A DNA stretch of 37,012 bases from Aquificaceae bacterium. Lineage in GTDB: Bacteria > Aquificota > Aquificia > Aquificales > Aquificaceae. Shown here one piece after another: positions 1 to 15,774 of this stretch. The translations under genes and the position numbers were made by a program. The stretch spans positions 1 through 37,012 of the forward strand of contig JAXSMZ010000014.1 in the NCBI GenBank assembly GCA_037924335.1, written 5' to 3'. Within the stretch, counting starts at the first letter, position 1, and each line of letters opens with the position of its first letter. The notes beneath the pieces are model-generated. The model ran no database searches and was not told where the DNA came from. It was given only the letters and a program-made list of their open reading frames with translations.

Positions 1-84
1 AACTGTCCGAACTTAAGCCTGTGGAGAGGTGAAAAGCCTCTATGAAGCAGGAAGCTCCATCTTCTATAAGATGGAGTAGTTCAC
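1..84 (+). mobile_element. IS200/IS605-family right end (3' end of tnpB plus omegaRNA/RE hairpin), truncated by window start
   Basis: Subterminal hairpin GCTCCATCTT-CTAT-AAGATGGAGT (54-77) followed by AGTTCAC, the typical ...GAAGC..GAAGCTCC..GGAGTAGTTCAC end. Upstream hairpin AGAGG/CCTCT (25-41). GTGAA (29-33) is complementary to the terminal TTCAC (80-84), giving a pseudoknot. Frame 3 reads LSELKPVER* (3-32), resembling TnpB C-termini. Confidence 0.8.
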
Positions 85-11728: not shown

Positions 11729-12916
11729 TTACTCTTCCTTATTGTCAAGAACCTCTATGCATGGAAGGGTGTTTCCTTCAAGAAGCTCCAAAAAGGCACC
11801 CCCACCAGTGGAAACAAAGTCTATGGCGTTGTATACACCGGCTTTGTGTATGGCATGGTCTGTATCTCCCCCACCGGCTATAGTAAGGGCTGGTGAACTT
11901 GCAAGCATCTTTGCTGTTTCATAGGTACCATCTTTGAACCTATCAAGCTCGAAGGCTCCCATGGGACCGTTCCATATGATAGTTTGCGCATCGGATATTA
12001 CTTCCCTCAAAAGGCTGACTGATACTGGACCTATGTCCAAACCCATCCAGCCTGAGAGAATATCCTGCCATGGAACTATCTTCGTTGGCGTACTGTCAGA
12101 AAACTCCTTACCAAGAACAAAGTCAACTGGAAGATAGAACTTTACACCGAGCTTTTTTGCAACATCCATTATATCCATTGCAGTGTCAAGAAAACCATCC
12201 TCCAAAACTGAGTTCCCAACGTCATAACCCATGGCCCTTATGAAAGTGAAAGCCATCGCACCACCCACGAATATCTTATCTACTCTTTTGAGGAGGTTTT
12301 TTATGATCCCTATCTTGGATGATACTTTAGCACCGCCCAGTATGGCAACAACAGGCCTCTGTGGGTTTACCATGGCCTTTTTAAAGTAGGATATCTCTTT
12401 TTCAAGAAGAAAGCCCATTACAGCAGGCTTTAGGATCTGCGGTACTGTGTAAACAGAAGCATGCTTTCTATGACATGTTCCAAAGGCATCGCTCACGTAC
12501 ACATCGCCAAGGGATGCAAGCTCCCTTGCAAAGTCCTCATCGTTCTCTTCCTCCTTATGAAACCTCAGGTTCTCAAGGAGGATAATATCACCCTCCTTCA
12601 TGCTTTCTACCATCTTTCTTACTTCTTCTCCCACACAATCGTTGGCCATCAGTACTTCTTTGTTTAGATACCTGGAGAGCCTTTTGGCAACTGGAAGGAG
12701 GCTGTACTTTGGATCTCTCCCCTTTGGTCTTCCAAGGTGAGACATGAGTATAACCTTTCCGTTTGCATCTAGGATATACTCTATAGTAGGAAGGCTTGCC
12801 CTTATCCTTGTGTCATCCTCTATGTTTCCCTGTTCATCCATGGGTACGTTAAAGTCAACCCTGACCAAAACCCTCTTCCCAGATAAGTCTACGTCCCTTA
12901 GGCTCTTCTTTTCCAT
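11729..12916 (-). CDS. pgk: Phosphoglycerate kinase
   Basis: RVDFNVP, SHLGRP, LLENLRF, GGAKVSSK, WNGPMG, GGGDT, STGGGAFLE. Confidence 0.98.
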   Translation of the reverse strand: MEKKSLRDVDLSGKRVLVRVDFNVPMDEQGNIEDDTRIRASLPTIEYILDANGKVILMSHLGRPKGRDPKYSLLPVAKRLSRYLNKEVLMANDCVGEEVRKMVESMKEGDIILLENLRFHKEEENDEDFARELASLGDVYVSDAFGTCHRKHASVYTVPQILKPAVMGFLLEKEISYFKKAMVNPQRPVVAILGGAKVSSKIGIIKNLLKRVDKIFVGGAMAFTFIRAMGYDVGNSVLEDGFLDTAMDIMDVAKKLGVKFYLPVDFVLGKEFSDSTPTKIVPWQDILSGWMGLDIGPVSVSLLREVISDAQTIIWNGPMGAFELDRFKDGTYETAKMLASSPALTIAGGGDTDHAIHKAGVYNAIDFVSTGGGAFLELLEGNTLPCIEVLDNKEE

Positions 12917-12917
12917 C

Positions 12918-13253
12918 CTAAATGTCTAAGTCTGTGTCTTCGTCATCGAGCTCCATGCTCTGGTCCGATGAGAATATACCCCTCAAGCTCAAAGCTAAGT
13001 TTTTTAAAGTCTCAAGATAAAAAAGAACATCATCATAAATGTTTAGCTGCGCTTTATACTTACTAACCTCAACGTAGGATAGTCTTTTGGACCTTAGGAT
13101 TTTTCTTATGGCCGTCTTGGACATGTAAGCTCTTGAGAACTTTTCTTGCCATTCTTTCCAAAATTCTAGAGTATTTATAGGGCTCTTGACTATAAAGTAC
13201 TCAAGATTGGACACCTCCTCCAGAAGATGAACGTCAAAGGATAAGTTTTTCAT
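12918..13253 (-). CDS. Hypothetical protein (111 aa), first gene of the pgk operon
   Basis: SD GGAGG at 13265-13261; stop 1 nt before the pgk start; acidic tail. Confidence 0.75.
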   Translation of the reverse strand: MKNLSFDVHLLEEVSNLEYFIVKSPINTLEFWKEWQEKFSRAYMSKTAIRKILRSKRLSYVEVSKYKAQLNIYDDVLFYLETLKNLALSLRGIFSSDQSMELDDEDTDLDI

Positions 13254-13324
13254 AAAAACACCTCCGTCTTATATTATCTTACAACATTCCATTTTTATCA
13301 AGAACCATCTTAGAATATTCCACA

Positions 13325-13410
13325 AGGCAAGGTAAGGAGGCAGGGACTTATATTATTGGGAGGCTTTTACGCCCCCAGAGTTTTATAATCCTGACCTTCA
13401 AGCCTTGCCT
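13325..13410 (+). ncRNA. Candidate IS110 bridge/seek RNA hairpin
   Basis: Outer stem AGGCAAGG/CCTTGCCT, inner stems GGAGG-CAGG/CCTG-A-CCTTC and TGGG-A-GGC/GCC-CCCA enclose an AT-rich internal region. It lies in the non-coding region 5' of an IS110-type ORF. Confidence 0.55.
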
Positions 13411-13440
13411 ACCTGAGAAAAAGAAGAGAGGAGGAGAGAA

Positions 13441-13782
13441 ATGAGGATAATAGGAGTAGACATAGGAGCAAAGTATATTATAGCCCATGATGGAAGCAAA
13501 GCAGTAGAGATAAGCACCCCCTTAGAAGCACAGGCATACATTAGACCCAAGGATATCGTAGTTTTAGAGCAGACAGGAGCATATGGGATGAGGTGGGCTG
13601 AGATATTTAGCTCTTTGGGTGCAAAGGTCTACATAGCAGACGGAAGGGATTTCAAGAACTACAGACTGGCACACAGCAGGAAAAAACATGCGGATTTCGT
13701 AGGAGCAATTAATATCTCTTTCAAAGGGCTGCAGTCAACAAGCCTTATGCCCCCAAGAGGGGCAAGCTCCCTAATTAATTAG
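13441..13782 (+). pseudogene. Truncated IS110-type (DEDD RuvC) transposase N-terminus fused in frame to a TnpB C-terminal fragment
   Basis: IIGVDIG (D7) and VVLEQTGAY (E43) are typical of the IS110 N-domain. After ...RKK the sequence switches to HADFVGAINI, the TnpB RuvC-III xADxxxAxNI motif. Strong SD GGAGGAG. The IS110 coiled-coil and C-terminal Ser domains are missing. Confidence 0.75.
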
Positions 13783-13794
13783 GGAGTAGTTGAC
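13725..13794 (+). ncRNA. TnpB omegaRNA 3' core / IS605-type right end
   Basis: Stem AGGGCT/AGCCTT whose loop GTCAAC (13734-13739) pairs with the terminal GTTGAC (13789-13794). Stem TGCCCC/GGGGCA. 20-bp perfect palindrome CTCCCTAATTAATTAGGGAG (13767-13786). Confidence 0.75.
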
Positions 13795-14630
13795 GAGAGT
13801 AAGCTCAGGCTCAAAAGAAGTGAGCCAATAAGCATCAGAAGAGTACCTGGTATTATATGCCTTACATCTTCACCAAAGAAAACCTTTCCATAGTATAGTG
13901 AGAGAAGGATTGACATCCTCTCCACAGCAACCACATAAGAAGTGGGAGCATACAACAGAGCTACATAATAAAGTACACCACCAAGGGCAAAGAAGACACC
14001 TATAAGCAGTAAGCTAGATTCTCTGTAGCTTTCACACCTTAGTAAATGCTCAGGTTTCACAAAGGGAAGCGTCCCAACGGACATACACGCTGTGTAATAC
14101 CAACTGAAGAAGTAAGGATTGCTTTCCAGAATAACCATCTTGCCTATCACTACGTTAAGACCAAAGAGAAGGGTAGATGCAATCATGTAAATAGACCCTA
14201 TATTCCTTCTAAAGAAATCCTTGAGAGAAAGACCCGTTATGAGTATGGCTCCGATCACAGTCAAAAGTATTCCAACAAAGCCTAAGGGTGTTATCCTCTC
14301 ACCCAAAAGTAAAAAGCTAAAAAGTGCTGAGAAGAAGGGCATTAGAGAGTAAAAGGACATGGCAAGTGAAAGGGGGGCATGTTTGAGAGCTTTTATGAAG
14401 AGAACACCACCCAAGATCTCAATGGGAAGCCAGAGCAGGGTGGACACCAAGATAAAACTGTTCATATCCCAAAAGAAGATGCTAAGAGGAAGCAGCAGGA
14501 GAGAAGATACGGGAAACCTTATCCAGAGTATAAAGTACTCATCAAAACCCTTATAGATGAGTTTTTTGCTGAAAAGGTCGTTTGTAGCCCAAAAGAAGGA
14601 AGAAAGAAAGGCAAGCAGTATACCAAGCAT
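13779..14630 (-). CDS. EamA/DMT family transporter
   Basis: About 10 TM segments, FFWATNDLFSKK, ALKHAPLS, LLGERIT, FFGE. Start at MLGILLAF (14630); the extension in the ORF track overlaps the divergent gene. Confidence 0.9.
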   Translation of the reverse strand: MLGILLAFLSSFFWATNDLFSKKLIYKGFDEYFILWIRFPVSSLLLLPLSIFFWDMNSFILVSTLLWLPIEILGGVLFIKALKHAPLSLAMSFYSLMPFFSALFSFLLLGERITPLGFVGILLTVIGAILITGLSLKDFFRRNIGSIYMIASTLLFGLNVVIGKMVILESNPYFFSWYYTACMSVGTLPFVKPEHLLRCESYRESSLLLIGVFFALGGVLYYVALLYAPTSYVVAVERMSILLSLYYGKVFFGEDVRHIIPGTLLMLIGSLLLSLSLLSSTTP

Positions 14631-14649
14631 TGAGATAAAATAGTTTAAC

Positions 14650-15774
14650 ATGCGAAGGGAAAGGCTCTTCACACCGGGACCCGTTGAAATACCGGAAAGA
14701 GTAAGGGAGACCTTAGGAAGACAGATAATACACCACAGGACAGATGAGTTTAAGACAGTTTTTTTGGAAACTAGGGAGCTTGTAAAAAGGCTTCTGGATG
14801 ATACTTCCGAAAACTTTGTATTTTTCTGCTCTTCTGGTACTGGCGGAATGGAGGCAGCCATACTTAACTTTTTTGAGTATGGGGATAAGGTGCTTGTTGT
14901 AAACGGAGGCAAGTTTGGACAAAGGTGGCTAGAACTTGCAGAGCATTGGGGTCTTAAGGTAGTTGACTACAGCATAGATTGGGGTAGGTCTGCTAGGGAT
15001 GAAGAGGTAGATGCCCTTCTCAGAGAACATCCAGATTGTAAGGGCATCCTTATGCAAATGTCAGAAACTTCCACGGGTGCTTACCATCCAGTTGAAGAAA
15101 TAGGCAGGCTTTGCAAGGAGAGGGATATCCTTCTTGTCGTCGATGCAATAACTGCCTTGGGTGTTTACAGGGTAGAACCAAAAGAGGTTGGCATAGACGT
15201 GCTGGTCGGAGGCTCCCAGAAGGCTCTCATGCTTCCACCTGGACTTTCTCTGCTTTGGTTTTCTGAAAAAGCCAAAGGGAGGCTAAAGGATAGGGCCTTC
15301 TACTTTAGTATAAAAAGGGAGATAGAAAAGCAGGCTATGGGACAGACGGCATGGACTCCTGCCATAAATCTAATAATAGCTCTGAAGGAATCTCTTTCCA
15401 TGATCCTTGAGGAAGGTATGGAAAAGGTGGAGAGAAGACACAGGGCTATGTCTGAGGGGACTATAAGGGCAGCGAGGGCGTTGGGTCTTACCCTTTTCCC
15501 AGAAAAACCGTCCATATCTGTAACGGCACTGGAGAGCGACCAATCAGAAAGGATAAGGAGAGAGTTAACAAAGCTTGGTATAAGAACTGCGGGTGGGCAG
15601 GACCATCTAAAGGGAAGGGTCTTTAGAGTATCCCATATGGGTGTCAGTGCAGAGGATGGCCTTATGTTTGTTGGGATGCTGGAGGTTGTCCTCAGTAAGC
15701 TTGGTTTTGATGTAAAGCTTGGGGAAGGCATTGCAGAGTACTCAAAAACGTTGATGGAAGCAGGAGTATGGTAA
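14650..15774 (+). CDS. Class V PLP aminotransferase (alanine-glyoxylate/phosphoserine aminotransferase type)
   Basis: LFTPGP, HHR, SSGTGGMEAA, GKFGQRW, SETSTG, VDAIT, GSQKALMLPPGL (PLP Lys), FRVSHMG. Overlaps the pspA start. Confidence 0.9.
   Translation: MRRERLFTPGPVEIPERVRETLGRQIIHHRTDEFKTVFLETRELVKRLLDDTSENFVFFCSSGTGGMEAAILNFFEYGDKVLVVNGGKFGQRWLELAEHWGLKVVDYSIDWGRSARDEEVDALLREHPDCKGILMQMSETSTGAYHPVEEIGRLCKERDILLVVDAITALGVYRVEPKEVGIDVLVGGSQKALMLPPGLSLLWFSEKAKGRLKDRAFYFSIKREIEKQAMGQTAWTPAINLIIALKESLSMILEEGMEKVERRHRAMSEGTIRAARALGLTLFPEKPSISVTALESDQSERIRRELTKLGIRTAGGQDHLKGRVFRVSHMGVSAEDGLMFVGMLEVVLSKLGFDVKLGEGIAEYSKTLMEAGVW

Follow-up and report, generated by a model that had tools for sequence, protein, structure and literature searches.

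A probable deletion scar of two adjacent RNA-guided transposons, IS110 and tnpB, in an Aquificaceae genome

A chimeric unit with two parents

The window (the whole 37,012-nt stretch of Aquificaceae DNA analysed here) contains a 517-bp chimeric unit that we regard, with a probability of about 0.8, as the immobile deletion scar of two adjacent RNA-guided transposons. It has two identifiable parents, defined outer junctions and a programmed target loop; it has lost all catalytic machinery and occurs as a single copy. Its limits, 13278-13794, are exactly those of the original prediction. Positions 13278-13686 derive from an Aquificota IS110 recombinase, of which they keep the left end plus codons 1-82; positions 13685-13794 are the 3'-terminal 110 bp of a tnpB element. 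Comparison with the parents places the deletion junction, predicted at about 13681-13690, at 13685-13686 (+ strand), where the two sides share 2 nt (AA).

In a BLAST search of the unit's own genome the region falls into two parts: 13685-13794 recurs at five further places, and the 5' part is unique. The IS110 part was a single copy by both BLAST and a profile search of the assembly. Its DNA (13273-13686) is 84% identical to an IS110 copy in genome G060, an alignment that includes the non-coding left end (13278-13440, + strand). Residues 1-82 have 16 longer relatives, all with PF01548 (the best, a 474-aa protein, is 94% identical), bearing out the predicted IS110 assignment of the first ~82 residues. 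Close relatives of this N-terminal part come from Aquificota, and relatives of the IS110 half were found in 10 of 89 other genomes of the family. The profile search proposed earlier thus succeeds for the parents, but the fusion alone matches Pfam DEDD_Tnp_IS110 only weakly (E 0.017, under the cut-off). No full-length IS110 or other IS110 copy was found in the 39-contig assembly. A weak PF01548 match on contig C8 was not reproduced by a search with the IS110 alignment A2. The predicted TnpB tail is equally recognisable, with 100 of its 110 bases identical to the 3' end of a 1,233-bp tnpB-only element on contig C1. This tnpB family was not found in the 89 other family genomes (E<=1e-20, four candidates scored per genome).

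The fused protein is known in three variants on four NCBI contigs, with 1 and 4 residue changes relative to that of the window. The reading frame is open in all three and the RNA modules are intact, indicating that the chimera is not a one-off, which counts against reading it as a scar. Intact IS110 and tnpB relatives in the same hot-spring sequencing runs, evident from loose ends at 13685-13687, also weigh against that reading. The inert debris envisaged as a refutation therefore fits in copy number, but not in being unique to one strain. The junction pattern gave 0 matches in metagenome and genome contig collections, from which the unit's own and near genomes may have been left out, and 0 of 16 metagenome IS110 loci run on into a tnpB tail. 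Searches of a viral contig collection with P0001 or with alignment A2 found no relative.

Could the join be a mis-assembly of an IS110 copy onto a tnpB copy? Both halves are repeats in these communities, and no Logan piece among those listed (4 of 16 runs) bridges the central join at 13686. Yet only 2 nt are common to both sides of the join, the identical join recurs in the three protein variants on four contigs, and among the 4 of 16 runs examined, one of which may be the source sample, Logan contigs span the left junction in X1 and X5 and the right one in X2 and X5. An assembly error is hardly credible on this evidence. The listed sequencing runs carrying the unit include no RNA dataset.

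The fused reading frame

The predicted 113-aa ORF with a strong Shine-Dalgarno sequence is present at 13441-13782, and its AGGAGG (13429-13434, + strand) is inherited from the IS110 gene, the parents having similar sequences. Codons 1-82 (13441-13686, + strand) derive from the recombinase and the last 31 codons (13687-13782, + strand) from tnpB, joined in frame and ending at its own stop. This tail is 90% identical in amino acids to the copy on contig C13 (tblastn), and its parent is TnpB by Pfam. Only these last 31 residues of TnpB remain, with no RuvC I-III body and no zinc finger.

D7, E43, D84, D87 and S252 are invariant in 13/13 full-length IS110 relatives, in which the parent motif reads K82-D83-D84-S-L-D87-A. 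IS110 similarity in the window ends after K82, and hence two of the four acidic residues (D84 and D87), the coiled coil and the Tnp domain are absent; D7 and E43 are kept, leaving the DEDD motif incomplete. The catalytic serine S252 is missing together with the Tnp domain, and the second core and the IS110 right end are replaced by the tnpB right end. IS621 requires the DEDD acidic residues, the catalytic Ser, the coiled coil and the Tnp domain, according to the available text of PMC11208158. The parents are ~450-500 aa long; a model of one shows additional C-terminal helices and a disordered tail, and matches IS621 and ISCro4 best (E 5e-8). In the parent clade, PF01548 is over the cut-off in 7/7 proteins, and PF02371 appears only under the cut-off, in 4/7.

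It had been suggested that a TnpB Asp falls roughly at the position of the third IS110 acidic residue. The chimera does have one such Asp, D85, but it aligns with neither D84 nor D87, falling two residues short of the latter. On a stronger version of this idea, the 113-aa fusion would be a novel, minimal protein of RuvC-like type, with the TnpB D85 helix standing in for the IS110 D87 helix to give a D7-E43-D85 triad. The join is in frame at a roughly equivalent helix, the Shine-Dalgarno sequence is strong, the frame is open in 3/3 variants, and residues 1-70 of the fusion model form an RNase H-like partial fold. Against this, the RNA-/DNA-binding domain is gone, an in-frame fusion has a prior of 1 in 3, and the model has no structure match at E<=0.001. 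Its residues 71-100 form one long helix (pLDDT 52-55) compared with two separate helices in the parent (87-92), and the tail does not pack back, although the low model confidence is weak evidence since co-evolution signal is absent across the junction in the alignment. The alignment used for folding (A4) leaves out two tnpB rows misplaced in A3. With D84 and D87 lost, the predicted fused active site does not hold up as a meaningful one, and we consider a new enzyme very improbable.

A programmed target-binding loop

The large hairpin predicted upstream of the ORF was recovered, the left non-coding end folding with a z-score of -3.99 (0/200 shuffles as good). Judged from its sequence, this hairpin (13325-13410, + strand) is a bridge-RNA-type target-binding loop. 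The left guide and core lie at 13347-13356 and the right guide at 13379-13389, and guides and flanks covary across relatives. The 10 bases to the left of the element are repeated within the hairpin. The left half of the IS110 target, CTTATA in host DNA (13268-13273, + strand), is identical to the left guide (13347-13352), so that guide and left flank agree at 6/6 positions. The right guide agrees at 4/5 with the empty site in genome G032, predicting AAAAC where the site reads AAAGC.

We applied the guide rule to 27 loci and scored 18 chromosomal copies with a loop, leaving out six right-end/left-end junctions and three loci without a called loop. Left guides matched their own flanks at 63/90 variable positions, with eight copies perfect, compared with a mean of 28.5 and a maximum of 53 in 100,000 shuffles; as the copies are related, this test overstates their independence. 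For four copies the called register was off by 3 nt; by eye, their match is complete. The right guide predicts the right flank 5/5 (the first base being invariant) at six right ends, and fails at L049. Copies that are 91-92% alike carry different guides, each matching 4-5 of 5 positions at its own site.

Some copies depart from this arrangement. L048 and L049 (both in G060, 97-99% identical) carry guides that do not match their own flanks; the L048 left guide equals the L049 left flank in the same genome, which hints at trans targeting or a change of guide. In one subgroup (the right end of L051; the first 300 nt upstream in L102) the target loop lies in the right end and matches the flanks by eye, and in L053 one hairpin arm of the target loop recurs, inverted, in the right end (+1709 to +1762).

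Target site and promoter

The IS110 core TTAT (13274-13277, + strand), fixed by the right ends and right-end/left-end junction loci of relatives, is part of a host -10 box that read TATAAT on the - strand before insertion. The empty sites of relatives read ATTATA in 9/10 cases, and the invariant part of the target is TATAAT on the opposite strand, which becomes GATAAT after insertion. Among 15 insertion sites with enough flank, 13 lie <=80 nt before a divergent gene start; for comparison, this holds for 386/1129 TATAAT sites and 110/978 random positions in the unit's own genome.

The invaded box belongs to a 111-aa host ORF (12918-13253, - strand), directly followed by pgk (11729-12916). Within the IS110 end, a TTGATA lies 17 bp upstream of GATAAT, giving a putative hybrid promoter (TTGATA-17-GATAAT, 13273-13301, - strand) that faces the 111-aa ORF and pgk. 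It is the best of five consensus matches (10/12). A -35 within one mismatch at 17-18 bp occurs in 8/28 left ends, and is thus a feature of some subgroups only. On the other side, the tnpB right end provides the final four codons and the stop of the EamA transporter gene (13779-14651, - strand); EamA in G032 ends four residues earlier.

The tnpB-derived end

The downstream end is also structured (z -3.16; 2/200 shuffles as good). The omegaRNA-like scaffold and right end (13727-13794, + strand) consist of a stem at 13727-13744 with loop GTCAAC, hairpins at 13749-13763 and 13767-13786, and a terminal GTTGAC. The loop (13734-39) is complementary to the terminus, making a candidate pseudoknot. A pseudoknotted IS605-type end had been predicted; the structured end and the complementarity are present, and GTCAAC and GTAGTTGA are invariant in 8/8 tnpB-end copies, but invariant columns give no covariation. 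The folding tool cannot draw pseudoknots and nests the GTCAAC/GTTGAC pairing. Rfam gave a HEARO match on the - strand below the gathering score, and two chance matches. The retained 110 bp span the entire conserved scaffold of ~68 nt; in ISDra2 the scaffold requirement is put at ~116 nt in the available text of PMC10097598.

The tnpB family has TTCAC as its adjacent motif, judging from two left ends (C1 and C6) and one empty site, empty sites being usable for 1/4 copies tried. The window has neither a tnpB left end nor TTCAC. The host flank at 13795-13810 (+ strand), which would be the omegaRNA guide, matches the G032 empty site, and the best TTCAC+guide sites in the unit's own genome have 3 mismatches in 12. 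The cognate TnpB copies with assembled starts, on C1 and C6, both have a TAG at codon 14. No Y1 TnpA, resolvase or serine transposase was found in the 39-contig assembly, whose breaks fall at repeats, where an intact TnpB or transposase may be concealed.

As both RNA scaffolds are complete, the remnant might be immobile yet still work as a source of guide RNA in trans, its target loop steering incoming IS110 recombinases or its omegaRNA loading TnpB made elsewhere. Trans use looks real in the clade, given the shared L048 guide and L049 flank, and 10 sites in the unit's own genome are <=2 mismatches from the 15-nt target. In the literature, as far as the available portions go, chromosomal loci express IS621 bRNA only weakly (PMC13626964) and trans bridge RNA has been suggested (10.64898/2026.08.14.744561). 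The assembly, however, lacks a full-length IS110, the cognate TnpB copies stop early, neither guide has a perfect target in the genome, and the omegaRNA's own target site was destroyed along with the left end. A trans role, already raised in the original prediction, is possible in principle, but neither an intact partner enzyme nor a perfect target turned up in the assembly, and we think it unlikely.

In the unit's own genome (G000) the TnpB zinc-finger family has 29 matches, and small tnpB-end remnants make up several families, with one nested in another (C4:27552-27795). Another tnpB remnant (C20:10050-10226) breaks within ~6 nt of the tnpB position at the window junction, and contig C13 ends (37203) at the same tnpB base; this may reflect a breakpoint preference, or chance. 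Window positions 1-84 are the right end of a different tnpB-type element.

Probable origin of the unit

Genome G032 carries the same two neighbour genes, no insertion, and 13 host bases that are absent from the window. This empty site shows that 13277/13278 (IS110) and 13794/13795 (tnpB) are separate insertion points 13 bp apart. Host DNA directly follows the tnpB end, 13 bp from the IS110 core, which rules out a nested origin; of the deletion between adjacent or nested copies proposed earlier, the deletion and the adjacency stand.

The guide match and the empty site show that the target loop of an IS110-family element steered it into the TTAT core of the -10 box ahead of the 111-aa ORF and pgk. 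The empty site also shows that a 1,233-bp tnpB-only IS200/IS605-type element inserted 13 bp further on, in the last EamA codon; either order of insertion is possible. G032 has TCTAG where TTCAC would be expected, which counts against this account; motif-directed tnpB insertion here is presumed, and a TTCAC would still give EamA an in-frame Ser-stop, which fits. Comparison with the parents then points to a single deletion at the 2-nt microhomology. The rest of IS110 would have gone with it, as would the 13 host bases and, on the other side, ~1.1 kb of tnpB sequence. As complete IS110 relatives measure 2.1-9.4 kb, the deletion was probably several kb long. The frame would have been kept by chance (1 in 3), running on to the tnpB stop.

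Its one left end comes from IS110 and its one right end is of IS605 type, and the remnant is most likely unable to move. A non-autonomous hybrid, mobilised through one-ended (half-match) IS110 recombination or TnpA, is a rival reading for which there is precedent: the available text of 10.64898/2026.08.31.748434 and 10.64898/2026.08.14.744561 reports half-match events in which partial IS110 units excise and reinsert, and the right-donor half (TTAT CTTAC) is still present. But pattern scans of metagenome and genome contigs and the 16 metagenome loci revealed no second locus, and apart from the missing 13 bp the flanks on either side follow the empty site collinearly. The non-autonomous element of the original prediction thus fares poorly, having one copy and ends of different families, and we give such mobility very little credence.

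Under the deletion-scar reading, the surviving ends may have been kept for host jobs: the -35 box, 17 bp away from the damaged -10, would come from the IS110 end and the EamA stop from the tnpB end. We put retention for promoter and stop-codon duty at about even odds.

The parent IS110 clade

In complete elements of the clade (L047, L049-L054, L074 and L076) the TTAT cores lie 2.1-9.4 kb apart, and small cargo genes are frequent; the two cargo proteins examined match YdjM. We found no donor-binding loop in these nine elements under one search rule (9-nt guides with <=2 mismatches each and a hairpin between), which would miss shorter or split guides. A candidate in L047 failed the hairpin test. 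In four copies an outer-stem GTAAG/GCAAG tracks the left-end start by eye; being base-paired, it was not counted as a donor loop. Junctions of the form right end-TTAT-left end occur in 9/14 metagenome loci (L064, L066-L073), in which a circle and a tandem array are indistinguishable.

In L111 (2503-8864), the recombinase is followed downstream, on the opposite strand, by genes of filamentous-phage type for a Zot/pI-family ATPase and Rep ORF2/G2P. From its gene content, this locus is probably an inovirus-like prophage with a clade IS110 as its integrase. Unusual genes, virus-like by eye, are also found in L056, +2600 to +6200 from the recombinase start.

We tentatively propose, as an idea that is somewhat more doubtful than not, that the parents are single-loop IS110 elements. 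The RNA would pick a -10 box plus 5 and 4 variable flank bases, and the protein would read the donor TTAT-CTT[A/G]C, perhaps with its extra C-terminal helices. Guides would be reset from copy to copy, and some left ends would rebuild the invaded promoter; the window remnant would then be a stranded, still-programmed guide keeping a host promoter alive.

Relation to known systems and significance

The parent clade resembles IS621 and ISCro4 in its DEDD motif and conserved Ser, its best fold match, its left-end RNA loop with two guides reading both target strands, its short core and its right-end/left-end junction forms. It differs in its core, which is TTAT rather than CT, in its -10-box target and in its proteins of ~450-500 aa with the added C-terminal helices and disordered tail, and the window copy differs further in having the first 82 codons only. 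IS621 also has a donor-binding loop (PMC11208160, available text), whereas our single search rule found none in the nine complete clade elements.

The tnpB half resembles deleted derivatives of IS200/IS605-type elements, and many deleted remnants occur in the unit's own genome. We take it to be comparable to the IS1341-like and PATE derivatives of such elements. PATEs, however, keep both ends of one family, and the window remnant lacks the left end and TTCAC. Nor does the unit have the one-family ends and several copies at different sites of MITEs and PATEs. The right-end hairpin and the omegaRNA-like scaffold overlapping the tnpB 3' end are as in tnpB-only elements and in ISDra2, insofar as the latter is covered by the available text of PMC10097598.

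Large IS110 elements (10.64898/2026.08.14.744561) and IS110-bearing inoviruses (PMC11437467) have been described, and the clade is alike in its 2.1-9.4 kb elements with cargo and its one locus with inovirus-type ATPase and Rep. The available portions of these two sources describe neither -10-box targeting nor an IS110-TnpB join, and the words 'tnpb' and 'promoter' do not appear in that of the former. Literature searches likewise found no IS110 clade aimed at -10 boxes and no IS110-TnpB chimera; most subscription papers and supplements, which may list the clade, lay outside their coverage.

The chimera itself is ordinary and not a new enzyme, and a scar alone is of an already known kind. It is a clear case of two RNA-guided elements decaying into a scar, with ends perhaps kept for host reasons. 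What is novel lies in the parent clade, which targets -10 boxes with copy-specific guides, carries cargo and showed no donor loop in our search. The clade's copy-specific guides offer a direct handle on how IS110 guides become reprogrammed. If our proposal is true, a thermophile IS110 moving 2-9 kb, aimed at -10 boxes and maybe free of a donor loop, would provide a bridge system that is both simpler and testable.
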